Counted from the first letter of the stretch, positions 27,170-43,388 are shown. The stretch is 64,000 nucleotides of DNA from Aliagarivorans taiwanensis DSM 22990 (GCF_000429505.1 NZ_AUBZ01000013.1:3545-67544), one strand, 5' to 3'. Notes: generated by a model not told the origin, from the sequence alone. A program made the numbers and translations.

Positions 27170-27826
27170 TTAGGCCAGTTTCAATTGATGGTGCTGGCGG
27201 TAGGCAACGATATCTTCGATGGTCAGCACTGGCATCTTGTGCTGCTTGGCAAAGGCGACGATCTCGGGCGTTTTCGCCATCGTGCCGTCTTCATTGGTCA
27301 GCTCGCAAAGCACGCCTGCAGGGGACAAGCCGGCCATTTGCACCAGATCGACGGTGCCTTCGGTATGGCCGCGACGGCTTAACACGCCGCCGGAGCGGGC
27401 GCGCAGCGGGAATACGTGGCCGGGGCGGGCCAGGTCGCTGGGCTGGGCATTTTTAGCAATCGCAGTCTTGATGGTGGTAACCCGATCAGCGGCAGATACG
27501 CCGGTGGTCACGCCATGCTTGGCTTCGATGGACACGGTAAAGGCGGTTTGGTTGGCGCTGGTGTTCTCGATCACCATCGGCGGCAGTGCCAGTTGGCTGG
27601 CTTGCTGCTCGGTCAGGCACAGGCACACGATGCCGCTGCACTCGCGGATCATTAGTGCCATTTGCTGGTCGGTTAAGGTCTCGGCAGCGTAGATAATATC
27701 GCCTTCGTTTTCCCGGTCTTCATCGTCGAGCAATAGCACGCCTTGGCCTTGTTTTAAGGCGGCTAGCGCCAGCTCTACACGTTCTAGTGGTTGGCCGAAT
27801 TCGGCTAATAGAGAAGTCTGATTCAT
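27170..27826 (-). CDS. ribB: 3,4-dihydroxy-2-butanone-4-phosphate synthase
   Basis: Starting from [13 protein letters not shown], the protein is collinear with E. coli RibB ([29 protein letters not shown]). A GGAG Shine-Dalgarno lies upstream. The longer ORF start at 27931 is probably spurious. Confidence 0.9.
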
Positions 27827-27961
27827 GGTGTACTCCAACATAATCGTTACCAGAATCAGGGCATAAGTAAGAGCGATCAACAACACGCACGCGCTCAGCG
27901 ATGCTTTGACAGGGTTAAACCCATACGACAAAGCCGCATCAATCGGTGCGGTATCAATCGA

Positions 27962-28150
27962 TAGATAACAGCGAGAGGGCTCGCTGGTTCACTCTCTCCC
28001 ATCCGGACTATGACCGTCGGCTCTGGAGTCTAACCAGATCTGCTGACCCTGAATCGCTATGCGATTCAGGCGCTCGCGGGCTTAATAAACGGCTGCGGGT
28101 GCAGCGCCTAATTTACCGCCGGTGGGGAATTTCACCCCGCCCTGAGAATA
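27962..28150 (-). promoter_or_regulatory. FMN riboswitch (RFN element) in the ribB leader
   Basis: The minus-strand sequence CAGGGCGGGGTGAAATTCCCCACCGGCGGTAAA...AGCCCGCGAGCGCC...GGTCAGCAGATCTGGT...CCGACGGTCATAGTCCGGATGGGAGAGAG reproduces the conserved RFN cores seen in the E. coli ribB leader. A downstream hairpin (CAGCGAGccctCTCGCTG) may act as the expression platform. Confidence 0.85.
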
Positions 28151-28210
28151 ATGCTTTGAAAAGCTTGGCTATATTAACGCTTTTTGCGGGGCAACAGAAG
28201 CATCAGCAGA

Positions 28211-29909: not shown

Positions 29910-30284
29910 TTCGTCTGAGATCGGTTGGCCACATTCACTATGCCGCTATAGACCGAAGAGAAATCAATTTTTGTTCAAGTGTAGTTTAGAAAAACGCCGA
30001 CATAAGGGGCTTATGCATCGCGCATCTTCTGCCGCTGGCCATAGTAAACGCGCAGGCATTGCTCAATTGGCTACTCGAACCTCATTTATTACTGCTTGTC
30101 TGCGAGAAAAGGGCTGTTTTTCATCCAAATTGAAGGTAAAAACAGCGCTTAGTTTTAGATGTCATGAATGTGACAAATATCTTTCATAAGGTGCTGGCTC
30201 ATAAGGCTTTATTACTTGATGGTTTTGCCACTAAGGGGTAGAGTTTTGACTCTTTAAATAATCGAAAAGTAGTTGAATTAAGCC

Positions 30285-30893
30285 ATGGGCGAGTTCTGGC
30301 ATCACCTGACGTCTTATCCTGTTGTTCTGTTTTCCCTACCGTTTGCAATTCTCGCTGTCGTAATGCTGCTGGATCTGCTGTTTGATCTCTCCGATGGTGG
30401 CTTGGGTGATACCGACGCTGGCCAAGTTGAGGCAAGCTGGGTGACCAATTTTTATCTTCCGCCGATTCTGAGCAAGGTCCCGTTGCCGGTGGCCTTGTGT
30501 ATTGCGTTCTTCCTCGCCATGGTGGCGATGTTTTACATCGAGACTGAGCTGCTGTCACTGCTCGGTGGCCTGCTTCGGCATGGGCTGACGGTGGGGCTAC
30601 TACCGATTGTTTTATATCTTTCACTGCTTGCTACCTCGTGGCTTGTCAAACCACTGGCACCGCTGTTTGACCATAACAACAGCTTTGCGGCCATGGAGTT
30701 TGAGGGGATGCGCGGCCAAGTGCGCAGTAATGAAGTGAGTGACGAGTTCGGTGAAGTCGTCATTGTAAAGGATGGCAATGAGGTCCAACTCGATGTCTTC
30801 CAGCAAGGAAGCCTTCCCATCGCCTATGGCGATGAGGTGGTGATTCTGGCAAAGGATGCAGCTAAGAACCGTTATCTGGTTTCGAAAATCTAA
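30285..30893 (+). CDS. NfeD-like / YqiJ-like (DUF1449) membrane protein with C-terminal OB-fold
   Basis: 202 aa with 3-4 N-terminal TM helices and a C-terminal beta-rich segment (GMRGQVRSNEVSDEFGEVVIVKDGNEVQLDVFQQ...GDEVVIL) typical of short NfeD proteins. Lies 29 bp upstream of the flotillin gene. Confidence 0.6.
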   Translation: MGEFWHHLTSYPVVLFSLPFAILAVVMLLDLLFDLSDGGLGDTDAGQVEASWVTNFYLPPILSKVPLPVALCIAFFLAMVAMFYIETELLSLLGGLLRHGLTVGLLPIVLYLSLLATSWLVKPLAPLFDHNNSFAAMEFEGMRGQVRSNEVSDEFGEVVIVKDGNEVQLDVFQQGSLPIAYGDEVVILAKDAAKNRYLVSKI

Positions 30894-30922
30894 ATCGTCA
30901 ACTTGATCCAAGGATTAAAAGA

Positions 30923-33079
30923 ATGATCAAAGTAGGAATGTTCTATTTTACCCCTATCGTGTTTTTTGCATTTGTCGCGTTAGGTCTGCTGTTAGTGGTA
31001 CTGCTGTTTTTAACCTCCCGCTACAAAAAAGTGCGCCATGAAGGTGAAGCACTGATCATCAACGGCGTTGAGCGCACCCGCGCTTCACTCACCGGCTCCT
31101 TTGTGTGGCCGGTTATCAACCGCGCCGAGTACATGGACATTACCCGTAAGAAGATTTCGGTAGTACGTAGTGGCCGCAAAGATCAAGAAGGCGAAGAGTA
31201 CGAAGGCCTGCACTGTAAAGACAACATCCGTGCCGACCTGCAGGTGGATTTCTACATTGGTGTGAACCACGAAGAAGATGACATTGTGCGCGTGGCCAAG
31301 CTGATCACCGCCAAAGGGGCATCGAACATTGAGCGCCTTAAAGAGCACTTCCAGCCAAAGTTCTCAGAAGCACTGAAGACTGCCGTAAAACAGTTCTCGT
31401 TTGAAGAGCTGCTGACTAACCGTCGCGCCTTCCGTGATGCGGTGGTACAGGTAATCGGTTCAGAGATGGACGGCTTCAAGATCTACGATGTGGTTATCGA
31501 CAAGGTTGACCAAACCGCGCTGGATGCCCACGACCCAGATAATATTTTGGACGTAGAGGGTATCCGCAAGATCTCGAAAATTACCGCCGAGAAGAACATC
31601 GAAACTAATGCGATCCGCCAGGATGAGCAAACCTCGGTGAAGAAAAAGAACGTAGAAGCCGAAGCCAACCGCTTGCAGCTGGATAAGCAAGAGCAAGAGA
31701 GCATTGCCCGCACCCAGCGTGAGATTGAGATCATCCGCGCCCAGGAAGAAGCGCTGACCGAAGAGAAGCGCCAAGAGTATGACCGCGTCGCTAAGATGTC
31801 GGCGCTGGAAACCGAGGAAGAGCTCGGTAAGAAGAAAGAAAGCGTGGACATGGAAGTGGAGATGACCCGCATCGCCAACCAGCGTCAGGTCGAGATCCAA
31901 AAAGAAGACCTTAACCGCGCCATCGAAACCGAGCGCGTGCGCACCGAAACCGAAGTGGTGCAGCGCACCATGGAAAAAGAGAGCCTCACCGAAGAGTCGC
32001 TCAAGTCAGTATCGGAAGTGCGCTCTCAACGTGTGGAAATCGAGCGTAAGATTGCCCGCGAAGAAGAAGAGACTCACAACCTGCGCGCCACCGAACAAGT
32101 GAACCGCGATAAAAAGGTGCGTCTGGTACAAGCCGAAGCCGAGGCCGAAGCCCAGCAACTTGAACTATTGGTTATCGCCAAAGCGGAGAAAGACGCCGCG
32201 GTTGAGCGCGCTGAGCGCACCCTTATCGAGAACGAAGCCGAGCTTAAAGTACGTACTCGCACCGCCGACAACGAGCTGACCGTGAAGACCCGCCAAGCTG
32301 AAGCGGACTTCCAGGTGACCTCGAAAGCGGCTGAAGCCGAGTACATCGCTCGCGATAAAGAAGCGGCCGCCAAAGAGCGTCTGGCACTGGCCGAGAAAGA
32401 GTTCATCTACTCAACCGGTCTGGCAGAGGCTGAAGTCGACAAAGAGCGCGCGGTAGCCTTGAAAGAGACTGGCCTTGCAGAAGTAGCGGTTGAGAAAGAA
32501 CGTGCGCTGGCTATCAAGCAAACTGGTGATGCCGAAGCCCACAACACCCAAGCAGCCGGTGAAGCGGAAGCCGAAGCGATGCGTGCCAAAGGCCTGGCAG
32601 AGGCCGAAGCGCAAACCGCGCGCTTTGAAGCCGCCCGTCAGTACGACGACCAAACCCGCGAGCACGACAAGTGGGTTATGCAGCTTAACCAACAAAAAGA
32701 TCTGGAACTGGCTCGTATCGCAGCCCAGCAAGAAGTGGCTGGCGAGAACGCCAAGGCGCTGGCTCAGGCATTGGCATCGGCCGATATCAAGCTGTTTGGT
32801 GGCGAAGGTATGGAGCAGATCCGCCGCACCGTTATCGATGCAGCCAACATGGACAGCCGCTTCAAAGAGTCTGAGGTAATGGGCCCACTGGTATCTGAGT
32901 ACATCAATGGCGACCGTAGCCTACCGCAGGACATCAAAGACATCCTTGAGAAAACCGAAGTGAGCAGTGGCGACCTGAGCAACCTGGCGCTGGCCAACTT
33001 GCTGACCAACAAAGGCAACGTTAGTGAGTTGCTGGAGTCGCTAAAATCCGCCGTTAGCCCAGAGAAAGAACCGTCTTAA
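30923..33079 (+). CDS. flotillin-family SPFH/band-7 protein (YqiK-like) with an extended coiled coil
   Basis: N-terminal TM helix and SPFH domain collinear with E. coli YqiK (FVWPVINRAEYMD, FSEALKT, DPDNILDVEGIRKI). Followed by about 400 aa of E/A/K/R-rich heptad repeats. Confidence 0.85.
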   Translation: MIKVGMFYFTPIVFFAFVALGLLLVVLLFLTSRYKKVRHEGEALIINGVERTRASLTGSFVWPVINRAEYMDITRKKISVVRSGRKDQEGEEYEGLHCKDNIRADLQVDFYIGVNHEEDDIVRVAKLITAKGASNIERLKEHFQPKFSEALKTAVKQFSFEELLTNRRAFRDAVVQVIGSEMDGFKIYDVVIDKVDQTALDAHDPDNILDVEGIRKISKITAEKNIETNAIRQDEQTSVKKKNVEAEANRLQLDKQEQESIARTQREIEIIRAQEEALTEEKRQEYDRVAKMSALETEEELGKKKESVDMEVEMTRIANQRQVEIQKEDLNRAIETERVRTETEVVQRTMEKESLTEESLKSVSEVRSQRVEIERKIAREEEETHNLRATEQVNRDKKVRLVQAEAEAEAQQLELLVIAKAEKDAAVERAERTLIENEAELKVRTRTADNELTVKTRQAEADFQVTSKAAEAEYIARDKEAAAKERLALAEKEFIYSTGLAEAEVDKERAVALKETGLAEVAVEKERALAIKQTGDAEAHNTQAAGEAEAEAMRAKGLAEAEAQTARFEAARQYDDQTREHDKWVMQLNQQKDLELARIAAQQEVAGENAKALAQALASADIKLFGGEGMEQIRRTVIDAANMDSRFKESEVMGPLVSEYINGDRSLPQDIKDILEKTEVSSGDLSNLALANLLTNKGNVSELLESLKSAVSPEKEPS

Positions 33080-33151
33080 GTTACCGGCTTGCACCACTTG
33101 TTCTATCTGCCTGTCCTCGCTTGAGGGCAGGCACTCTAAGGATGCGATTAC

Positions 33152-36100
33152 GTGACTGATACAACATCCAACTCTATTGATCAGGCCGTCAGCGAAGGCG
33201 GAGCTTACGAAACGCTCAAGGCGCGCCTCGGTCAGCAGGGTGATACGCTAAAGTCGCTGGCTCAGCAGTTTAACCACAAACGTCAAGAGACCTTCGGCGG
33301 CAGCGAGATTGCACTGGTTGGCAAGGCCAACGTACAGACCGATACCCGCTGTATTCCGGTGGATATGGCCCAAGTGAATGGCCAGCTGCTGTTTGGTTAC
33401 CAAGTCTATGTTGGGCTCAAATCAACCCCGTCACTGAGTGACGTGTTTGGCTTGTATACCCTGCAAGACCACGAAGGAACCTACCGAGTCGACCCGGTCA
33501 AGCTCGAGGACTCCTTCCTCAGCGATGCCCGCTTTAACCATGAGTTCACCGAACTCTTCACCTATTACAAAGACGCCCGCCTGTCGCAGATCTCCCGTCA
33601 GGAAAGCATGCTTTATCTGGCTTTCCAGATCGGCTCGCGCGCAGAAGACCGCAAGGTATTTCGCTTTGAGATCCGCAAAGACGGCGTGGTCTACCTCGAC
33701 AGCCAAGGCCGATTGGAGCTTAGCGCTGCCCAGCAGCACGACTTTGAATGGATCGATACCACCCGCGACGACCATATCGCCGGTGACCATCCCCATGTGT
33801 CGATTCAAGATACTCTGTTTGTCGAATGTGTCGGTGGCGATCTAACCATCAAGGTTGAGAACAACACCCAAGAAGGCAAGGGCATCTACAGCGAGCCAGT
33901 GGAAGATGCGCACCAGAGCGTGGCGGATGCACAAATCGCCTATGCCTTGGTGGGTGATCTTATCGTGCTTCGGGTATTGCCCAACCGCGAAAAAGCGCAG
34001 CGCTATTTTATCTACAACCCACTCAATCAACTGGTGGTGCGCGCCGACGCCTTGTCGGTGAGTGCTAAGGCCTTGCCGGAAGGGCACGGCGTGCTCTACT
34101 CCAAGGGCTATGTGCTGTCTGGTGGTGAGCATAAGCAGTTTGATGGCGATTGGCAGGGGCTGGAGTTCTTCCAGAAGATGTCCTCGCCGAATGGCGAAGA
34201 TGAGGTCTACATCTTCTTCGATGTGAATGCCGGCTACTACGTCATCTACATCTACAACCTAATTGAAAAGTCCTTCACCGCACCGATGACCAGCCACGGC
34301 GTCAGCCTCTATCCTGACGGCCGGATGATGATGTTCCGGGTGTCGGAGAACGCCGAAGCCTCTACCATTCACCCACTGCGGATCTGGCAAACCCCGTTCT
34401 CGGTGGCTGAATACTATTTGCAGCAACAAAGCCAGAAAAGCGGTGGCGACAGCTTTATCTCCAACCTGGGCAATGCCGAGTTGGTGCGGGCGCTGTCATC
34501 GTTGCTGACCATCTGTCAGCTGGCCTCCAGCGATGAGGTGTCACAAGCCGCTTTCGAAGCCCTGCTTAAGGTCTGTCAAACCACCCTTGATACCTACGAT
34601 TGGCTGGCCGATCCACGTACCGAAGGGCTAGGCGATGCCGTAACCAGCCTGATGGGCACCGCCGATGCGATCATCGACGAGTTCGCCAAGGTGCGCCAGC
34701 TACAGCAACACGCCGTGGTTGAGCTAAGCGCCCAGCAAGACTCGGTCAAGCAGCTGGTGGGTAAACTCAAACTGGCCCCGAGCGATGAGGCCAGCGCACT
34801 GTTGGCGCTACTAGCCGCGCTTAAATCGGAAGTTGGCAAGGTGATGCAGCTCAAGGCGCTGCGCTATATGCCGATGCCGCCGGTACAAGCGATGCTCGAT
34901 GAGCTGGCTGGCGAGCGCGAGCAATTGAACCTGCGTTTGGTCACCCTGCTGCAGGACGAAAAATCCTACCGGCCTTACAAAAAGCGTATCGAGGCCATTG
35001 AGGCCAAGCTGCCGGAGGTGGAAAAAACCACCGAGCTGGCCAAGTTACAGGAAGAGTGCGACACGGTTCGTACCGAGCTGGGTCTGGTCACCGAAGAGGT
35101 GGCCGAGATTGAAACCGACGATCCGACCCAAGCCACCCGCATGCTCGATCTGACCACTGAGGTCAGCGCCATGCTCAACGCCACGTCGGCGCGTTTGCGC
35201 CAGCGCCAACAAGCGCTGCGCGGCAACGAAGCCAAGGCGGAGTTCAGTGCCCAATTTAAGCTACTGGGGCAAGCGGTCAGCAGCGCCATGGAGCAGGCCA
35301 GTACCCCCGCTCAGTGTGATGAGCAGATGGCCAAACTGGTGGGCTTGGTGGACAAGCTGGAGTCGCGCTTTGCCGACTTCGATGAGTTCCTAGGCGAGAT
35401 CTACGCTAAGCGCGAAGAGATCCAATCCAGCCTGGAAGGCCATAAGCAGCAGCTGATCAGCGCCCAGCAACGCCGGGTGCAAAACCTCAACCAAGCCGCT
35501 GAAGTCACCTTCAAGAGCATCGACAAGCGGCTTAGTCGCTTTGAAGACCCGGCTGAGCTGAGTAGCTACTTTGCCACCGACGCCATGGTGCTTAAGCTGC
35601 AGCAGCTGGTGGGCGATATCCGCCAGCTCGGCGATAGCGTTAAAGCCGATGCATTGGACGCCAAGCTAAAGGCTGCCCAAGATCAGGCCCTGCGCGCGCT
35701 GCGTGACAACAAAGATATCTTTGAAGAGGGCGGCAAGGTGCTGCGCCTTGGTAAGCACCGTTTCAGTGTTAACCAGCAGGCGCTGGACCTGAGTATGGTC
35801 AATCGCCAAGGCGAGCTAAGCCTGCACATCACCGGTACCGAATACTACGAAGCGGTGGATAACCCCGAGTTCCTCAAGCTGCAGCAATACGCCCAGCTGG
35901 ATGTCACCTCGGAGACGCCCGAGCTGTATCGCGCCGAATACCTGGCTTACTCGGTGCTGCAAAGCGCTCAGCGTCAGGAGAATGAGCTGTCGATGACGCT
36001 GTTGGAGCAGGCGCATAAAGATGGCCAGTTGGCCAAGCTTATCCAAAAATTTGCCGCGCCGCGCTACCGCGAAGGCTACGTGAAAGGCGTGCATGACCAT

Positions 36101-38065
36101 GATGCCGAGAAGATCCTCCGTGCTATCTTGCCGTGCTTTCAACAAGCCGGGCTGCTGCGCTTTGGCCAGTTAGAGCGTGCCAGTGCGCTGTTGTGGTTGA
36201 GCCAGCTAGATGGCGAGGCGCGCAGCGAGTGGTACCAACACGCCCACAACGCTGCGCTACTCAAAGAACATCTCAATGCCCATGCTGCCTTTGATGCGCT
36301 GTGTGAGCGCTTGGCTGGTGAGGTAAGCGCCATTGACGGCGCCGATATCCGCAATACCTGCGAGTATCTGGTTCGGCTACTGGCGCGCCAGGCCGATGCC
36401 GGCATGCTGGAGGTGGAGTGTGGACGCGATGCCCAAGAGCTGAAGGACAGCTATCTGTCGTTCCGCCGCGGCCTCGGTTGGCGGGCTACTGGGCTGGTGG
36501 ATATCCACGAGTACCAGTCCCATGCTCAATGGTTGGCAGCCTATAGCGCCAAGCATCAGCCGCAAGCACAGGCCTTTGTGGCAGAAGCGGCGCTGCTGGC
36601 CACCTTGCAAGAGTGTCAGGGCATCAACTTTGTGGCGCTGGACTTCTCCTTGCAGGTTGAGGTGAACGACTTGCTGGGCGATCACCGCTTGGTGGAGCAG
36701 GGCTCGCTGAGCATGGTGCTGGACGAGTTTTTGGGGCGCTGTGGCCATCACCATAGCGATACCATCCCCAACTACGAGGCCTACCTGCAGCAACGCTCTG
36801 AGCTACTGAATAGCACCAAGGCCAACCTGCGTCTTGATGAGTTTAAGGCGCGTCCGCTGACCTCGTTTGTGCGCAATATGCTGATCTCCGAGAGCTACCT
36901 GCCGCTGATTGGTGACAACTTGGCCAAGCAGATGGGCACGCTGGGCGATAGCAAGCGTACCGACTTGATGGGCATGCTACTGCTGATCTCGCCACCGGGT
37001 TACGGTAAGACCACCCTGATTGAATATGTCGCCCACAAGCTGGGACTGGTATTTATGAAGGTGAATGGCCCATCGATTGGTCATCAAGCCACCTCGCTTG
37101 ACCCCAGCGATGCGCCAGACCAAAACGCCGCCCGCGAGATTGAGAAGATCAATATGGCCTTCGAGATGGGCAACAACGTGCTGCTCTACCTCGATGATAT
37201 TCAGCATACCAACCCTGAGTTCTTGCAGAAGTTTATCTCGCTGTGTGACGGTACCCGTCGCATTGAGGGTAGCTGGAAGGGCCAGACCAAGACCTATGAC
37301 ATGCGCGGCAAGCGCTTTGGCGTCGTGATGGCCGGTAACCCTTACACCGAAACCGGTGAGATGTTCCAGATCCCCGATATGTTGGCTAACCGTGCCGATA
37401 TCTACAACCTGGGTGATATGCTGTCAGACCAGAAGCAGGCCTTCGAGCTGTCGTTTGTCGAGAACTCGCTGACTTCAAATCCGATCCTGGCACCGCTGGC
37501 GACCCGTGATTTGAATGACCTGTACAAGCTGATCGCCATGGCACAAGGCGACAAGGTAGCCTTGAGCGACCTGAGCCACCCATACTCTGCCACCGAAGCC
37601 AACGAAATCGTGGCGGTGTTGCAGAAGCTATTGGTGGTACAGCAAACGGTGTTAAGGGTGAATCAGCAGTACATCGCCTCGGCGGCCACCGCCGACGAGT
37701 ATCGCACCGAGCCGCCGTTCAAGTTACAGGGCTCCTACCGCAACATGAACAAGTTGTCGGAGAAGGTGTCTGCGGTGATGACCGAAGATGAGCTGCAAAC
37801 CTTGATTCAGGACCACTATCAGGGCGAGTCGCAAACCTTGACCGCCGGCACCGAAGAGAACCTGCTTAAACTCGATGAGTTGCGCGGTGTCCTCGACGGT
37901 GACAAGGCGCTGCGTTGGCAGGAGATCAAGGCGCGTTATTCACAGAAGCAAGAGCTGGGGGATAGCGAGGACCGCGCTGCCCAAGTGGTTCAGCAGCTTT
38001 ATTCCATTAATCAGAGTATTGGCAAGGTCGCCAAGCAGTTCTCTGGAGAACAGGAGCTGGTGTAA
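33152..38065 (+). CDS. 1637-aa multidomain protein: N-terminal globular region, central coiled coil, C-terminal AAA+ P-loop ATPase
   Basis: Long uninterrupted ORF with an RBS. Walker A ISPPGYGKTTL lies at about 36990-37020. Walker-B-like VLLYLDDIQ, sensor-1 VVMAGNPY and a candidate Arg finger LANRADIY follow. Residues 480-900 are Q/L/E/K-rich with heptad periodicity. No signal peptide. Confidence 0.8.
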   Translation: MTDTTSNSIDQAVSEGGAYETLKARLGQQGDTLKSLAQQFNHKRQETFGGSEIALVGKANVQTDTRCIPVDMAQVNGQLLFGYQVYVGLKSTPSLSDVFGLYTLQDHEGTYRVDPVKLEDSFLSDARFNHEFTELFTYYKDARLSQISRQESMLYLAFQIGSRAEDRKVFRFEIRKDGVVYLDSQGRLELSAAQQHDFEWIDTTRDDHIAGDHPHVSIQDTLFVECVGGDLTIKVENNTQEGKGIYSEPVEDAHQSVADAQIAYALVGDLIVLRVLPNREKAQRYFIYNPLNQLVVRADALSVSAKALPEGHGVLYSKGYVLSGGEHKQFDGDWQGLEFFQKMSSPNGEDEVYIFFDVNAGYYVIYIYNLIEKSFTAPMTSHGVSLYPDGRMMMFRVSENAEASTIHPLRIWQTPFSVAEYYLQQQSQKSGGDSFISNLGNAELVRALSSLLTICQLASSDEVSQAAFEALLKVCQTTLDTYDWLADPRTEGLGDAVTSLMGTADAIIDEFAKVRQLQQHAVVELSAQQDSVKQLVGKLKLAPSDEASALLALLAALKSEVGKVMQLKALRYMPMPPVQAMLDELAGEREQLNLRLVTLLQDEKSYRPYKKRIEAIEAKLPEVEKTTELAKLQEECDTVRTELGLVTEEVAEIETDDPTQATRMLDLTTEVSAMLNATSARLRQRQQALRGNEAKAEFSAQFKLLGQAVSSAMEQASTPAQCDEQMAKLVGLVDKLESRFADFDEFLGEIYAKREEIQSSLEGHKQQLISAQQRRVQNLNQAAEVTFKSIDKRLSRFEDPAELSSYFATDAMVLKLQQLVGDIRQLGDSVKADALDAKLKAAQDQALRALRDNKDIFEEGGKVLRLGKHRFSVNQQALDLSMVNRQGELSLHITGTEYYEAVDNPEFLKLQQYAQLDVTSETPELYRAEYLAYSVLQSAQRQENELSMTLLEQAHKDGQLAKLIQKFAAPRYREGYVKGVHDHDAEKILRAILPCFQQAGLLRFGQLERASALLWLSQLDGEARSEWYQHAHNAALLKEHLNAHAAFDALCERLAGEVSAIDGADIRNTCEYLVRLLARQADAGMLEVECGRDAQELKDSYLSFRRGLGWRATGLVDIHEYQSHAQWLAAYSAKHQPQAQAFVAEAALLATLQECQGINFVALDFSLQVEVNDLLGDHRLVEQGSLSMVLDEFLGRCGHHHSDTIPNYEAYLQQRSELLNSTKANLRLDEFKARPLTSFVRNMLISESYLPLIGDNLAKQMGTLGDSKRTDLMGMLLLISPPGYGKTTLIEYVAHKLGLVFMKVNGPSIGHQATSLDPSDAPDQNAAREIEKINMAFEMGNNVLLYLDDIQHTNPEFLQKFISLCDGTRRIEGSWKGQTKTYDMRGKRFGVVMAGNPYTETGEMFQIPDMLANRADIYNLGDMLSDQKQAFELSFVENSLTSNPILAPLATRDLNDLYKLIAMAQGDKVALSDLSHPYSATEANEIVAVLQKLLVVQQTVLRVNQQYIASAATADEYRTEPPFKLQGSYRNMNKLSEKVSAVMTEDELQTLIQDHYQGESQTLTAGTEENLLKLDELRGVLDGDKALRWQEIKARYSQKQELGDSEDRAAQVVQQLYSINQSIGKVAKQFSGEQELV

Positions 38066-38132
38066 ATCCATGGGCGGCGTGTATAAGCGCCGCCCTTGTT
38101 TTATTGCCAGCCACAGATAGTTAGGGATCGTT

Positions 38133-39302
38133 ATGAGCGAACAACATACCCCGGAACAACATGCCCCGGATCAACTTACCTCGGCAGCACGCCAAGCACC
38201 GATCGTGGGTGCCGAGAACGCGACGATTGCCGAGCCATCGCTTGGCCAGAGTGATAGCGCCCTCAGCCGTGTGGATGTCAGTGACAGTCGCGTGATTGAG
38301 ATGGCCAGTGGGATTGACCCCTACAACAGCGTGTCGACCATCAGCTTTGGCCAGCCAGCGCTTCAAAGCATTACCGACTTCTCCGATAAGGTGCTCTCGG
38401 AGGTGAAGACCACCGATGCCGGCGAAGCGGGCACTTTGCTCGAGAGCATGGTGCAGTCGATGAGTGGCTCTCAGTTCGGTGAGCTGGGTAAGCAGAGCCT
38501 GCTGGAGCGCCTGCCCATCATTGGCGAGATGTTCAACACCTTCAATAAGTTTGTGGACAGCTTTGATTCAATCAAAGACAAGCTCGACAAGCTCGCGAAG
38601 GGGCTAGAGGGCCATCAAACCAAGCTGGCCTACGACCTGCAGCGCCTCGATGGCTTGTATCAGGAAAACCTCAGCTTGCTGGAACAGCTGGATGTGTATA
38701 TCGCCGCCGGTAAGCTGCGCCTGAGCCGGATGCAGCAAGATGAGCTACCCGCGTTCAAGGCCACCGCCGACAAAACCGGCGATGCCTTGGATGCCCAGCA
38801 CTACCGGGATGCGTTGCAAGCCTCGGCCCGCCTCGAGAAACGCGTGCACAATCTTGAGATCACCCGCTTGACCGCGATTCAAGCCGCCCCGCAGATCCGC
38901 CTGTCTCAGGAAGGCAATAAGATCCTGATGGAGGATATTCAAGATATCGTGCACAGCACCTTCCCACTGTGGAAGCGCCAGTTTGTGATTGCGGTGTCCA
39001 ACTACGAGAAAGAGAAGGCGCTCAAGGTCACCAAGGTAATCAAGGACTACACCAACCAGCAGTACAAAGAGAATGCCGATAAGCTGAAGTATCTCGAAGA
39101 GCAGCTGGCCGAGAACTATCAACGCGGCGTGCTGGATGTCGAAGCGCTTGAGCATGTTAACAAGGTCACCATTGAGACTCTGAACAATACCTTGACCCGG
39201 ATGAAGCAAGGACAAGAGCAACGCCGCCAGGCCGAGCTGGTGCTGCAAAAATCCGAGCAAGAGCTTAAAGATGCACTGCGCGAAGGGATGGAGCAGGGCT
39301 AA
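38133..39302 (+). CDS. TelA/KlaA-family (toxic anion resistance-like) protein
   Basis: 389 aa. Length, predicted all-helical content and overall similarity fit the TelA family (cf. B. subtilis YceH). Lies 67 bp downstream of the giant ORF on the same strand. Confidence 0.65.
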   Translation: MSEQHTPEQHAPDQLTSAARQAPIVGAENATIAEPSLGQSDSALSRVDVSDSRVIEMASGIDPYNSVSTISFGQPALQSITDFSDKVLSEVKTTDAGEAGTLLESMVQSMSGSQFGELGKQSLLERLPIIGEMFNTFNKFVDSFDSIKDKLDKLAKGLEGHQTKLAYDLQRLDGLYQENLSLLEQLDVYIAAGKLRLSRMQQDELPAFKATADKTGDALDAQHYRDALQASARLEKRVHNLEITRLTAIQAAPQIRLSQEGNKILMEDIQDIVHSTFPLWKRQFVIAVSNYEKEKALKVTKVIKDYTNQQYKENADKLKYLEEQLAENYQRGVLDVEALEHVNKVTIETLNNTLTRMKQGQEQRRQAELVLQKSEQELKDALREGMEQG

Positions 39303-39528: not shown

Positions 39529-40059
39529 ATGCCTAGCAAGGGCTTTACCATGGTAGAGCTGACCGTGGTGGTGGTGATACTTGGGGTTATTGCCGTGTTT
39601 GCCCTGCCACGTTTTCTTTCGTTCTCCCGCGACGCCCAAATCAATGCTAATCAAGCCACCGCCGAGGCCTTCGAAGCGGCGCTCGACAGTGCGCATTTAA
39701 AATGGCAAACCGAAGGGGCGCCCGGTCGGATACAAGACCTTGATGGCACCATAGATATGAGTAGCCTTGGCTGGCCAATAGGTACCAACAAAGGTAGCGG
39801 CAACGACAATGTTGGTCGTGGTGCTGCGGGGTGCTATCAGTTGTGGAACTACTTGATGAACGATTCGCCTAGTGCAATTAACAACGCGAGCGCCGATTAC
39901 CAAAGTTACCGTCGGGCGGGGGGAAGCGCCTGCACCTATATCTACCGAGCCGGTGGCGATGAGTCGGGGCGCGGTCAGGCCGATTTAGGGATCTACTACA
40001 ACTCGCTTGATGGCAGCGTGACAACCTGTGGGCAATGGTTGGGGGAAGGGTGTAACTAA
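39529..40059 (+). CDS. orphan type IV pilin-like / pseudopilin protein (prepilin N-terminal methylation motif)
   Basis: N-terminus MPSKG|FTMVELTVVVVILGVIAVFALP carries the class-III signal with Glu+5. Mature domain contains 4 Cys. 176 aa. Confidence 0.65.
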   Translation: MPSKGFTMVELTVVVVILGVIAVFALPRFLSFSRDAQINANQATAEAFEAALDSAHLKWQTEGAPGRIQDLDGTIDMSSLGWPIGTNKGSGNDNVGRGAAGCYQLWNYLMNDSPSAINNASADYQSYRRAGGSACTYIYRAGGDESGRGQADLGIYYNSLDGSVTTCGQWLGEGCN

Positions 40060-40110: not shown

Positions 40111-43100
40111 CTAGTCGTTGTCGCTAATGATCACTTCGGCATAGCTTTGCGCGCCTAGCTCGGCGCCGCGCGACCATAGCAGGTAGACATGGAAGCTTTC
40201 CTCACTTTCTACCCGGCGATCATCGCGGATGCGCGCGTTCAGATAGCGGCTACCCGATTCGCCTTCGCGCCAGCTTAACAGTTGGATGGGCGCGGCGCGG
40301 TAGTCACGCCAAGAGGCGGAGCCGGGCAGGATCAGAGCCCACACTCGGGTGCGCTCGTTGGCTGGGCCATTGAGCTCAACCGGGATCTGGATGCGGCGAG
40401 CACCTTCGTCGAACACAAACTCTGTGGCCGGGAAGTTCACCGCCAGTGGGGTGCTGTCTTCAATCAGCAGGTCGACTTCCTGCTCAGCGAGTTTCGCACT
40501 CCCTGATACCACGCGCAGCTCAAGCTCGGCGCGCTCTTGCTCTTCAATAAGCGAGTCGCTGTATGCGCCAATATTGAGCGTGTAAGGGCTTTGGTCACCA
40601 TCGCCCCAAACCAACTCGCCTGACAGCAGTGGCAGATCGCTCTCATCGGCGCTGTCAGCCACGATTTGGTAGCTGATCACCACTTCACCAAAGCTGCCGC
40701 CGCTGCGCTGGAACACCAGCTCTGCGGTTTCGCCTTCGACGATGGTCAGCGAGGGCGCTACCTCGATGCGGCCTGCGCTGCGCATATCCAGTGCCAGTAC
40801 CACAGGGTCGTGGTCTGAGGCGCGATAGGCGCTCGGGGCGTAGTAGTCGACGATTTGTTGCTCGGTTTTGTACTCGGTGTTGTAGTCCAGCCCACGTGGC
40901 TCGTCGGCGTTGATATGCCAGTCGGTGGCGGCCACTACCCGGCTTAGCAAGGCAGAATCGGCCAAGGCGTGATCGAGGCTGCCGGCTTCTTCGTCGAAGT
41001 AGTAGGAGTAGCTGCCTTGCTCGAACAGCGGTACCACGTTGGTGAAGCCCGCAGCTTCAAAGGTCAGCATCGGGTCTTCTTTGGCGTAGGCGTTGAAATC
41101 GCCCATCAGCAGCACCTGAGTTTGCTCATCGAAGTATCCGCTAAGGGTTTGCGCTGCCAGTACTCGCTGGCCGTTACAGTTACCTTGGCCGTCGTTCATA
41201 TCCGGGTCGCCCAGTGCGTCACAGCAGGAGCCTTTCGATTTGAAGTGGTTGACGGCAACGCTAAGCTGCTCGCCGCTGGCTAGCACTTCAAAACGCTGGA
41301 TAAGCGGTACCCGGTGTTTAGCGGTGGCGGCATCGAAGGGGTAGGCCTCCAGCAGCTCAGCCTCGCCGGCGGTTGCTACCACTGCTGGGCGGTAGATAAG
41401 GCCCACGGCGATGGCATCGTTACCCACCAGACCAGCTGCTGGCGCGACAAACGCGTAGTGTTGCTGCTCGCTCAGTTCTGCGTTCACCGCATCAACCAAG
41501 TTGGCAATGGCGCTGTCGTCGCTAAAGCCGTTGTTTTGGATCTCCACCAGGCCGACGATGTCTGCGTCCATAGCAACCAAGGCGGCAACCAGTTTGGCGC
41601 GCTGGCGTTCAAACTCTTCGGCGGTATTGGCGCCGCGGTAGAGGTCTTCGCCCAAATCGAGGTCGGTGAAGAAGTTGAGTACGTTGAAGCTAGCTACTTT
41701 AAGGGTGCCTTGACCGTTCCCTTCATAAACGAGCTGAGGCTCGGCGCTGCGCGGGTTGGCGTCGATAAAGTTCGGCTGTGAGGTGGACTGAACGCGGTAG
41801 GCGCTAAAGGCATAGTTGAGCACGCCTTCAACACCGCTGACCTCGCTACCCGCACGCAGGCTTAGCTCGGCGGATAGCTGAGGGAAGTAGCTGATCTCTG
41901 GTGGGTTCTGGGCGCTTACCCCATCGTCTAGCAACAAGCGGTTGAGGATATTGGCCTCAGCCACTGCGAAAGCCTCCGGAGTGCCCGCAGGATAAAGCTG
42001 GGTAGACTTGTAGCGTTTACCCAAGGACAGCACCGTCTCACCGTAGCGGTTGAAGTTGTAGCGTGGAGTGGCGTGCAGGGTTTGTGGCAGGCTGACGCGC
42101 ATACCTTCCAAGTGTCCCAAATCGGTGTCCGCCAATGGCAGGGTGATGGGCGTGGCGCTCGGTAGTGGCTCTTCGCCACATACGCTCAGCCCTTCAACGC
42201 TGGTCAGTTGATAGCCGCCGCTGTAGCTGTCGAAGGTTGCCAACACGCGCACGCGCTCGCCTAGGTTGACTGCATCACGGAAGTGGTAGACGAACACGCC
42301 TTCGGATGTAGCATCGTCACTATCTTGGTTGGCATCGGCATGCTGTAAGAAGAAGCCCGATAGCTGATAGTTGTCGCCCACGCCTTGGAAGTCGCCAACC
42401 ACAACCGCTTCGACCACGACGCGTTGGCCTAGCATGGCTTGCGCGTTTGACAAGCTACCACCTTGCTGGCCGCGTAGCGCGTGAATGGGGGTGCTGTCTT
42501 CGCCACAGAGGCCAAGTACCAGCTCAGGGTCGGTGGGTTCGCCGCCGCCATCGCCAGAGCCATCGCCACCAGAACCATCGTTAGAGCAGGCATCCACGCC
42601 GATACAGCCGAGGCCATCAACGGTGTTTTGGGCGAAGTTAAACCAGCGTGCTGCCAGGTTGAATTCCGACTCGTTGTTGTTGTCTGCATCGCTGCCGGTG
42701 ATGCGGCGCAGCGTCATATCTTTGGTGCTGCCACCGCCACCGGTCCAGACCTGACGCACGCCGATCTGACCGATTCGGTCGACCAACACACCATTAAAAA
42801 ACAAGCCAACGGCATCGTCGCCGTTAAAGTTCACCACACTGGAGGCGCTGCCAATACCGGCGGGGATAACCGCGTTGTCGTGATTGCCGATCACGCCTTG
42901 GTTGTTGACTAATACCAAGGTTTCACCGGCGGCCAGCGAGCCGCTTAGCTCTTGGGTTGGCGCCGTTGGAGAACAGTCTTACCTCGTAGCCGCTTAGGTC
43001 TACGCTGCTGTCGCCATAGTTGGCAATCTCCAGCGCTTTGTTAAAGCTGCTGCCTTCGACGTACTCGCTAAATAATACGTCGGCGTGAAGTGGGCTACTT

Positions 43101-43138
43101 GCAGCACTTGCTGCCAATAGCCAGGGGATCAGTTTCAT
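40111..43138 (-). pseudogene. ExeM/NucH-family extracellular nuclease (LTD domain + endonuclease/exonuclease/phosphatase domain + C-terminal domains) with an apparent frameshift near its 5' end
   Basis: The signal peptide and start of the lamin-tail domain (MKLIPWLLAASAASSPLHADVLFSEYVEGSS...YEVRLFSNGA) are encoded in ORF 42923..43327. The rest (PTQELSGSLAAGETLVLVNNQ..., EEP-domain block LKVASFNVLNFF) is in ORF 40111..42918. A single indel at about 42955-42962 is implied. Confidence 0.7.
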
Positions 43139-43388
43139 AGTTAACGTCCTTGTTGAAAGTAGCGGTGTTGCAAACGCAAAAACGGCAGTGGATAGACTGC
43201 CTAGGCAATCCAGTGTGGATGCGCTAAGTGACAGAAAACAAGGATTTTTAAGACAAAAGAGTGAAGCTTTGATGACCAGATAGCGGGGCCGACAATGTGG
43301 CTGCTCGCTCGTATACCCTAACAACAAATCGGGTCGTGATAAAAACGTGATAACTTCGTGAACCTGTCGGGATATCCGCTACCTAGCC

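Follow-up and report, generated by a model that had tools for sequence, protein, structure and literature searches.

A probable PspA-less form of a conserved flotillin and giant ATPase operon in Aliagarivorans taiwanensis

We identified, within a 64,000-nucleotide stretch of DNA from Aliagarivorans taiwanensis DSM 22990 (the window), a locus that we consider, with a probability of about 0.7, to be the PspA-less or "abbreviated" form of a conserved membrane-stress and membrane-remodelling operon of the type described by Ravi et al. (2024), whose full form is very likely the Pseudomonas aeruginosa operon bacABCDEF. The operon product is most likely a membrane-stress or remodelling machine on the cytoplasmic face of the membrane. 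The operon is not a new discovery, since it is already in the comparative-genomics literature (Ravi et al. 2024). The original prediction had held this architecture to be undescribed, and was anticipated both by that study (mSystems, PMC11237479) and by RT-PCR, proteomic and phenotype data on bacABCDEF.

Results

Organisation of the locus

Four open reading frames of 202, 718, 1637 and 389 aa lie in the same direction on the + strand (Table 1), with 29, 72 and 67 bp between successive genes and a non-coding region of about 375 bp in front of the first, an arrangement that had been predicted and was borne out in full. Neither a sigma-70-like nor a sigma-54-like consensus site was found in this upstream spacer. 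Among the terminator-like sites of this region, the hairpin at 38072-38105, with a 9-bp stem containing 8 GC pairs and a T-run, was the strongest, and the remaining sites in the scan were weak and intragenic, in agreement with the expectation of a hairpin only before the last gene. The total number of terminator-like sites was unremarkable (16, versus 10.3 +/- 3.2 in shuffled sequences). No homologues of PspA, DUF2170, PLD or rhomboid proteins were identified anywhere in the 64-kb window, and the upstream dyad of DUF2170 (CesT/Tir-like) and PspA is thus absent from the locus, which accordingly corresponds to the abbreviated operon form.

Table 1. Coordinates of the features of the locus, counted from the first nucleotide of the window.
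Feature	Position	Strand	Evidence or remark
Upstream non-coding spacer, 375 bp, presumed promoter region of the operon	29910..30284	.	common to divergent alpha/beta-hydrolase gene
YqiJ/NfeD-like (DUF1449-type) membrane protein, 202 aa	30285..30893	+	hhalign to YqiJ, orthologue names, hydrophobic segments, synteny
YqiK-type flotillin, 718 aa	30923..33079	+	Band_7 matches of homologues, hhalign to YqiK, TM segment, E/A-rich composition
Giant soluble ATPase, 1637 aa, database name 'DNA repair ATPase'	33152..38065	+	Pfam
Beta-propeller domain, aa 54-413, core of DUF3686	33311..34390	+	AF2 model, Foldseek
Long helical/coiled-coil stalk, aa 419-852, contains DUF7902	34406..35707	+	AF2, Pfam
Conserved small beta domain and helical domain, aa 863-1151	35738..36604	+	AF2, residue conservation
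MoxR-class AAA+ module, about aa 1243-1500	36878..37651	+	
Walker A SPPGYGKTT, aa 1280-1288	36989-37015	+	
Walker B LYLDDIQH, aa 1345-1352	37184-37207	+	
Terminator-like hairpin, GGGCGGCG-loop-CGCCGCCC then TTGTTTTATT	38072..38105	+	between giant gene stop codon and telA
TelA-family protein, 389 aa, soluble, helical; lineage-specific accessory	38133..39302	+	Pfam, synteny

The YqiJ-like protein and the flotillin

The domain assignments first made for the four products (NfeD/YqiJ-like, flotillin, AAA+ and TelA-like) stand on profile and structure tests, with the first two proteins falling below Pfam thresholds and needing profile-profile tests. The first gene product contains three hydrophobic segments (3-TM) followed by a C-terminal, beta-rich and putatively OB-like soluble domain. 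It had no direct Pfam match; its family profile aligned to Escherichia coli YqiJ across the last TM segments and the C-terminal domain (hhalign probability 91.5%, E=8.7e-7, 131 columns), and its orthologues at 50% identity carry the NCBI name 'DUF1449 domain-containing protein'.

The flotillin comprises an N-terminal TM anchor (hydrophobic/TM segment at residues 1-35), a divergent SPFH/band-7 domain, an E/A-rich coiled coil (19% E and 15% A over residues 231-600) and a C-terminal tail. The window protein itself had no Pfam match, missing PF01145 (Band_7) even at E<=10, and no PDB sequence match; PF01145 was matched by 13 of its 22 full-length homologues (41-77% identical), with a best E of 4e-13. 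The family profile aligned to E. coli YqiK over 414 columns (hhalign probability 99.6%, E=1.2e-24), in an alignment that takes in the SPFH region and the coiled coil, as far as profile column 478. The protein shares 100% identity with its A. taiwanensis database entry, and its database label is 'peptidase'.

The giant ATPase

The third gene product matched DUF3686 (E=5e-157), DUF7902 (E=1e-17) and AAA/AAA_5 in Pfam, and belongs to a family, with more than 3475 homologues found, of constant architecture and about 1600-1900 aa. Neither this protein nor TelA contains a TM segment, and the products of the first two genes are membrane-anchored. The N-terminal propeller is beta-rich in the AF2 model (mean pLDDT 85.7), and matched WD40/DCAF1, Elp1, PON1 and prolyl-oligopeptidase propellers in Foldseek, as well as proteins that combine a propeller with a helical part (e.g. 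IFT-A and clathrin). The stalk that follows has helices of up to ~50 residues in the AF2 secondary structure, with DUF7902 at aa 605-687. The subsequent beta and helical domains are rich in invariant residues (e.g. R851, D852, H869, Y976, H981 and D982), and pLDDT exceeds 90 across most of aa 930-1200.

The fold of the AAA+ module is nearest to that of MoxR members, and it has a conserved Walker A, a conserved sensor-1 (N1396) and a conserved candidate Arg finger (R1414). It is not a classical-clade unfoldase; a Vps4-like identity, with affinity to Vps4, Cdc48 or spastin and an MIT-type N-domain, was considered and rejected. The protein is probably an active ATPase, because the AAA+ catalytic residues are invariant. 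The canonical Walker B hhhhDE is replaced by D1348-D1349, invariant in 50 homologues, and hydrolysis could therefore be slow or regulatory, given that all members have DD rather than DE. No VWA partner was identified in the operon of the window, in the recurrent neighbour clusters, or among the best 25 of 86 Pfam families with matches to the 119 flanking proteins.

The generic annotation foreseen for this gene was found, and the name 'DNA repair ATPase' is misleading. We consider it extremely improbable that the protein is a DNA-repair ATPase only incidentally linked to flotillin, a reading that draws on RuvB P-loop matches, which are weak (E between about 1e-3 and 1e-4), and on the Pfam description of DUF3686 as 'ATPase involved in DNA repair', from which the NCBI product name derives.

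Conservation across bacteria

At least 590 bacterial species carry the operon type; Stenotrophomonas maltophilia, Vibrio, Xenorhabdus and Myxococcus are among them, and it is very probably present in P. aeruginosa too. The flotillin gene lies just 5' of the giant ATPase gene in all 73 species-level loci whose upstream sequence was long enough, and the YqiJ-like gene is also present, directly 5' of the SPFH gene, in 69 of these. As this order recurs in 73/73 phylogenetically distant loci, the grouping is far beyond chance, and the YqiJ-like, flotillin and giant ATPase genes are a true conserved unit. The taxa represent at least eight phyla or classes, among them Gammaproteobacteria, Betaproteobacteria, Zetaproteobacteria, Myxococcota, Actinomycetota, Planctomycetota, Acidobacteriota and a Clostridia MAG. 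On one short Flavobacteriales contig, no flotillin gene was found within 1.5 kb upstream. Distant members could differ, since the 80 loci analysed are those closest to the query among at least 590.

TelA and the other accessory genes

The last gene product gave a full-length match to PF05816 (248.5 bits against a cut-off of 30; E=1.2e-73; profile positions 2-331 of 332). A telA gene lies 3' of the giant gene in only 13 of 68 loci, in Vibrionaceae and Xanthomonadales, and here follows a strong terminator-like hairpin; TelA is thus a lineage-specific add-on and not a core component. The proposal of one membrane-anchored machine made of all four proteins is therefore supported for the first three genes and not for TelA. 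The linkage of the giant ATPase to flotillin was constant, that to TelA was not, and the neighbouring genes gave no sign of a defence island. Other accessory genes were DUF2170 together with PspA, the commonest pair (30 loci), PLDc_2 (14), rhomboid (10) and Zn_ribbon_TFIIB (6). Every recurrent accessory, whether DUF2170 and PspA, PLD-family hydrolase, rhomboid, zinc-ribbon protein or TelA, acts at membranes.

The accessory genes are patchy and lineage-specific, as might be expected of an anti-phage or abortive-infection system in which a flotillin platform would carry PLD and TelA effectors, and PLD-family HKD enzymes and Ter/TelA genes have been linked with phage resistance elsewhere. However, the four proteins gave no matches to 5027 PADLOC models, even at E<=0.1, and no relatives were found among 2.9 million viral contigs. 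The 119 nearest neighbours in 70+ genomes were metabolic or housekeeping proteins with only single, sporadic PADLOC matches; in the window the locus is flanked by ribB, an acetyltransferase, a hydrolase and a pilin-like gene. The P. aeruginosa homologue, moreover, has biofilm and osmotic-stress phenotypes. We found no support for phage defence or for DNA repair, and we regard a phage-defence role as very improbable.

Discussion

A possible mechanism for the membrane-stress operon

In the membrane-stress and remodelling reading that we prefer, the flotillin, with its YqiJ-like partner, would form an oligomeric SPFH cage or platform that sits on the inner membrane at its cytoplasmic face. The giant protein would form an AAA+ ring, whose long stalks bear propellers that may dock onto the flotillin platform or onto clients, and ATP hydrolysis would drive the assembly, disassembly or remodelling of scaffolds (flotillin, and PspA where present) upon envelope damage. 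In Aliagarivorans, TelA would be a putative, loosely coupled accessory stress factor, expressed either by read-through of the intrinsic-terminator-like hairpin or from a promoter of its own.

According to a recent review, a Vps4-like ATPase 'appears absent in bacteria'. We tentatively suggest, as a speculative extension, that the giant ATPase may be the missing ATP-driven remodeller of sub-membrane scaffolds, a non-homologous functional counterpart of Vps4 that would build up or take apart flotillin cages and ESCRT-III-like PspA polymers, with TelA, PLD and rhomboid proteins as interchangeable membrane-repair effectors brought to one common platform.

The same components could instead serve quality control, with clients rather than scaffolds as substrates: membrane proteins that are damaged or unassembled would be enclosed by the flotillin cage, from which the ATPase would extract them, or it would mature them or pass them on (e.g. 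to rhomboid or other proteases), in the manner of HflK/C-FtsH or Staphylococcus aureus FloA-NfeD. SPFH cages are known from the literature to enclose the AAA+ protein FtsH, and FloA-NfeD to stabilise unfolded proteins; the MoxR-class relatives CbbQ and NorQ remodel specific client complexes, and a rhomboid intramembrane protease gene lies 3' of the giant gene in 10 loci. However, the ATPase has no fused or consistently linked protease domain, no VWA adaptor and no known client, and the commonest accessory pair contains PspA, a membrane-scaffold protein. We thus judge quality control rather unlikely.

The regulation of bacterial flotillin and PspA-type ESCRT-III assemblies is poorly understood, though the proteins themselves are well known. 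Because this operon type always joins a large ATPase to the flotillin/NfeD pair, with PspA as well in 30 of the loci sampled, it is a concrete candidate for the energy-dependent step, and a genetically tractable one. Two widespread misannotations, 'DNA repair ATPase' and 'peptidase', can be corrected, and the TelA proteins of Vibrionaceae and Xanthomonadales gain a membrane-scaffold context.

Comparison with known systems

MoxR-class ATPases normally pair with a VWA-domain partner, and CbbQ and NorQ are stand-alone rings of ~260 aa, with CbbO and NorD as their VWA partners. In contrast, the module studied here forms the C-terminal quarter of a 1637-aa protein, lacks such a partner and has a Walker B DD in place of DE. 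FtsH is a membrane-anchored, classical-clade AAA+ protease. In HflK/C-FtsH, an SPFH-family scaffold and an AAA+ machine are likewise functionally coupled at the inner membrane, whereas the giant protein is soluble, of the MoxR class and without a protease domain; homology with the locus extends only to the SPFH and AAA+ superfamily level.

The E. coli yqiJ-yqiK and Bacillus subtilis yuaF-floT genes are a homologous pair in the same order, ~25-30 bp apart. The E. coli pair is followed by the sibD/ibsD loci, and not by a giant ATPase or TelA gene, and the window flotillin is longer than E. coli YqiK (718 versus 553 aa) and has diverged too far to be matched by the Pfam Band_7 model.

Ravi et al. 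(2024; PMC11237479) described, in purely computational work, an operon of YqiJ/YuaF, band-7/flotillin and beta-propeller-coiled-coil-AAA+ proteins with or without PspA and PLD, the full string being CesT/Tir - PspA - YqiJ/YuaF - band-7/flotillin - beta-propeller+coiled-coil+AAA+ (+/- PLD), and proposed a role in sub-membrane assembly and dynamics. They found abbreviated operons without PspA to be widespread, and our locus survey reproduces these forms. Compared with the supplement of that paper, the three core proteins are the same and agree in both gene order and domain architecture. The full form has a DUF2170/CesT-like gene, PspA and PLD, whereas our locus is without these and has TelA instead, a name with 0 occurrences in the main text of PMC11237479.

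The P. aeruginosa 'biofilm-associated cluster' bacABCDEF (PA3732-PA3727 / PA14_16140-16200) begins with BacA (DUF2170) and BacB (PspA), followed by BacC, a short NfeD, and BacD, the flotillin PaFlo3; sigma-54 dependence has been proposed for the operon. All six genes are co-transcribed (RT-PCR), and all bac products are co-upregulated in a bacA mutant; BacB rises upon osmotic shock, and bac mutants show defects in biofilm, rhamnolipid, swarming and virulence. In contrast, the window has neither BacA nor BacB genes and no sigma-54-like site upstream, and it has a TelA that the bac operon lacks. The published bac junction primers encode EGDFFN, NNCI(A), IKVM and DFxxLD, which match the Pseudomonas orthologues at the flotillin C-terminus, the giant protein N- and C-termini and the PLD N-terminus. 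These primer-encoded peptides, rather than the gene sequence, indicate that BacE and BacF are homologues of the giant ATPase and of PLD, and bacABCDEF is very likely the PspA-containing full form of the operon.

Conservation of a three-gene core

The genes for a YqiJ/NfeD-like protein, a YqiK-type flotillin and a giant AAA+ ATPase form a real, deeply conserved three-gene system. We surveyed one genome per species, identifying at least 590 loci with a relative of the giant protein, and analysed the best 80 of these plus three others. A flotillin gene was found upstream on the same strand, usually less than 150 bp away, in all 73 loci whose upstream sequence extended to 3.2 kb or more, and a YqiJ-like gene lay ahead of it in 69 of these 73. 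TelA, encoded by the fourth gene in Aliagarivorans, was found downstream in only 13/68 loci, all of them from Vibrionaceae or Xanthomonadales. The strict synteny of the first three genes, set against the patchy occurrence of TelA, indicates that the core is a three-gene unit; thus, the linkage originally predicted for all four genes holds for the flotillin, YqiJ-like and giant ATPase genes, but does not generally extend to TelA.

Loci were identified in Vibrionaceae, Pseudomonas, Stenotrophomonas, Xenorhabdus, Burkholderiales and Zetaproteobacteria, and additionally in Myxococcota, Actinomycetota, Planctomycetota, Acidobacteriota and a Clostridia MAG. Among the examined loci with partial upstream sequence, only a contig from an uncultured Flavobacteriales (L061), too short to reveal partner genes located elsewhere, lacked a flotillin gene beside the giant ATPase gene; its upstream 1.5 kb instead contains two ORFs, one small and secreted-looking and the other of 146 aa. 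In Veronia nyctiphanis (L006), the flotillin and giant ATPase genes are each split into two ORFs, reflecting either pseudogenisation or assembly frameshifts.

Organisation of the Aliagarivorans locus

The DNA is that of the gammaproteobacterium Aliagarivorans taiwanensis, and the 718-aa flotillin shows 100% identity to the protein of this species. The four predicted ORFs proved exact in their coordinates, all on the forward strand, with gaps of 29, 72 and 67 bp and an upstream spacer of 375 bp. The sole strong terminator-like structure has a 9-bp stem, in which 8 pairs are GC, and then TTGTTTTATT; it is located in the 67-bp gap ahead of telA. We found no sigma-54 promoter match in positions 29910-30284, and sigma-54-like matches across the window were at chance level (102 against 98.7), so that an upstream sigma-54 promoter, as proposed for the bac operon of Pseudomonas aeruginosa, was rejected. 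There were no Rfam RNA elements within the four-gene locus, and no similar DNA was found in E. coli genomes.

Nothing unusual marks the flanks: genes for ribB, an acetyltransferase and an alpha/beta hydrolase lie upstream on the reverse strand. Immediately 5' of ribB is an FMN riboswitch (RF00050, 111 bits, E=1e-25), the usual and expected pairing. The pilin-like, 935-aa and lamin-tail genes downstream did not recur beside the operon in other genomes.

Features of the Aliagarivorans locus, its flanks and selected relatives' loci (L numbers; coordinates within each locus)
Feature	Position	Strand	Remarks
ribB (DHBP synthase)	27170-27931	-	upstream flank
FMN riboswitch	27987-28153	-	upstream flank
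YqiJ/NfeD-like protein gene	30285-30893	+	202 aa
Flotillin gene	30923-33079	+	718 aa
Giant ATPase gene	33152-38065	+	1637 aa
Walker B of giant ATPase	37184-37207		LYLDDIQH
Terminator-like hairpin	38072-38105		
telA	38133-39302	+	389 aa
Type IV pilin-like protein gene	39529-40059	+	N_methyl motif; just 3' of telA
Endonuclease/exonuclease/phosphatase (EEP)-family protein gene	40111-42918	-	935 aa; 3' of telA
Small lamin-tail-domain protein gene	42923-43327	-	3' of telA
Extra Xanthomonadales ORF	L042:15319-16077	+	helical; precedes TelA
Extra Xanthomonadales ORF	L050:15352-16059	+	helical; precedes TelA
Extra Xanthomonadales ORF	L046:15310-15993	+	helical; precedes TelA
Extra Xanthomonadales ORF	L023:15262-16038	+	helical; precedes TelA
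Conserved ~116-aa ORF (example)	L075:5190-5540	+	
Region upstream of giant ATPase gene	L061:1-1500		no flotillin gene
Flotillin gene	L006:7852-9944		split into two ORFs
Giant ATPase gene	L006:10001-14871		split into two ORFs

Identity of the flotillin, YqiJ-like and TelA proteins

The YqiJ-like protein and the flotillin gave zero matches to Pfam, NCBIfam or PDB sequences, even at E<=10, so the labels first given to them were untested guesses, and their identification needed profile-profile comparison with E. coli YqiJ and YqiK. Both labels proved right. The flotillin family profile aligned to YqiK with 99.6% probability (E=1.2e-24) across the TM anchor, SPFH domain and coiled coil, and 13/22 full-length homologues contained a Band_7 match. 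The profile of the YqiJ-like family aligned to YqiJ with 91.5% probability (E=8.7e-7); the protein contains the expected three hydrophobic segments, and its orthologues are named DUF1449 by NCBI. The identity of TelA is unambiguous, with a full-length match to the predicted PF05816 domain (E=1.2e-73).

Most public Vibrionaceae records name the flotillin 'peptidase', and the giant protein goes under 'DNA repair ATPase'; both names look like systematic misannotations.

Accessory genes

We identified several recurrent accessory genes, all encoding proteins that act at membranes: a DUF2170 and PspA dyad directly upstream (30 loci), a PLD-family gene (14 loci), a rhomboid (10 loci) and a TFIIB-type zinc-ribbon protein (6 loci). 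TelA is one among these interchangeable membrane-related add-ons. The PLD gene that lies between the giant gene and telA in Vibrio is missing from Aliagarivorans. We considered whether TelA might be a cryptic PspA/ESCRT-III homologue substituting for PspA, and rejected this because the hhalign probability was 0.7% and the two proteins occur together in four loci (L015, L023, L046 and L058).

An extra helical ORF of ~230-260 aa, situated ahead of TelA and overlapping the giant-gene stop codon, occurs in Xanthomonadales loci. Its copies share a G(W/F)(W/I/L)GRLLGRD motif and matched nothing in Pfam at E<=1; it may be an additional accessory component. A conserved ORF of ~116 aa, likewise without a Pfam match, was found near the operon in nine loci, upstream in eight (six on the same strand, at a median distance of 35 bp) and downstream in one, and might be a small regulator.

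Architecture and naming of the giant ATPase

Pfam identified DUF3686 (E=5e-157), DUF7902 and a single AAA+ module in the giant protein, upholding its initial assignment as an AAA+ protein, and no TM segments were found. AlphaFold, run on alignments of 50 sequences, gave confident models, with a pLDDT of 85.7 over residues 1-1200 and of 80.0 over residues 1151-1637. The predicted order, from N to C terminus, is a first helix, the beta-propeller (aa 54-413), very long helices spanning ~430 residues, a small beta domain with a helical domain, both conserved, and the AAA+ module. Foldseek matched the propeller to WD40, PON1 and prolyl-oligopeptidase propellers, and the region also to proteins that combine a propeller with helices, among them IFT-A and clathrin. 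At 622 clusters (50% identity), the propeller family is a small one, and the domain is almost always N-terminal, in proteins of 1600-1900 aa. Walker A (GYGKT), sensor-1 N1396 and R1414 are invariant across the family, as is an Asp-Asp pair in Walker B in place of the canonical Asp-Glu, a substitution that might indicate slow or regulated hydrolysis.

As anticipated, homologues carry uninformative database names; one UniRef record reads 'Chromosome partition protein Smc'. The name 'DNA repair ATPase' appears to derive from the Pfam description of DUF3686 alone. We rejected a role in DNA repair, as we found neither domains nor genomic context to support it. Literature searches found no mention of DUF3686, and no match for 'DNA repair ATPase' plus flotillin.

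Proposed function

The locus had been suggested as a possible stress-response or phage-defence-type system. PADLOC models gave zero matches to the four proteins and sporadic matches only among 119 flanking proteins, the neighbours being housekeeping genes; no defence-island context was found around the operon loci, and no relatives were found in the viral contigs searched. A defence function is thus unlikely.

From the protein identities, their membrane or soluble topology, the synteny and the membrane-acting accessory genes, all directly observed, we infer the following function. On the cytoplasmic side of the inner membrane, the flotillin and its YqiJ-like partner would form an SPFH platform. 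The giant protein would assemble as an AAA+ ring, with long stalks bearing propellers for docking onto the platform or clients, and ATP turnover would remodel scaffolds (flotillin, and PspA where present) under envelope stress. A VWA partner for the MoxR-class module is absent and Walker B is Asp-Asp, so the textbook MoxR mechanism should be invoked with caution. The main alternative retains the same parts, with the ATPase acting instead on client membrane proteins, in a quality control resembling that of HflK/C-FtsH.

Comparison with known operons

The original prediction was correct as an observation, and for a three-gene core; its interpretation was right in part, as TelA as a core component and the novelty of the architecture do not stand and phage defence is unlikely. 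The claim that the architecture was undescribed and experimentally untouched is incorrect, since the same operon type was described by Ravi et al. 2024 (mSystems, PMC11237479), who found abbreviated, PspA-less operons to be more widespread, and since experiments have been performed on P. aeruginosa bacABCDEF (PMC10948618). The locus will be no surprise to specialists familiar with PSP comparative genomics. It is a well-defined, tractable candidate for the energy-requiring step of flotillin/PspA membrane biology in bacteria.

The bac operon opens with BacA (DUF2170), BacB (PspA), BacC (short NfeD) and BacD (flotillin PaFlo3) (PMC10948618). The published RT-PCR primers spanning the bacD/E and bacE/F junctions (PMC10948618) encode EGDFFN, NNCI(A), IKVM and DFxxLD, peptides that match the flotillin C-terminus, the giant-protein N- and C-termini and the PLD N-terminus of other Pseudomonas loci. 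Thus, BacE is very probably the giant ATPase homologue, and BacF the PLD homologue. All six genes are co-transcribed and their products co-regulated, BacB is induced by osmotic shock, and bac mutants are defective in biofilm, rhamnolipid, swarming and virulence (PMC10948618).

The operon type has so far been characterised only by computational prediction and, in P. aeruginosa, at the operon and phenotype level; no biochemical study of the giant ATPase was found in the literature. The main text of Ravi et al. 2024 (PMC11237479) does not mention TelA, whereas the Aliagarivorans locus contains it; this locus is a TelA-bearing, PspA-less variant of an already described operon.
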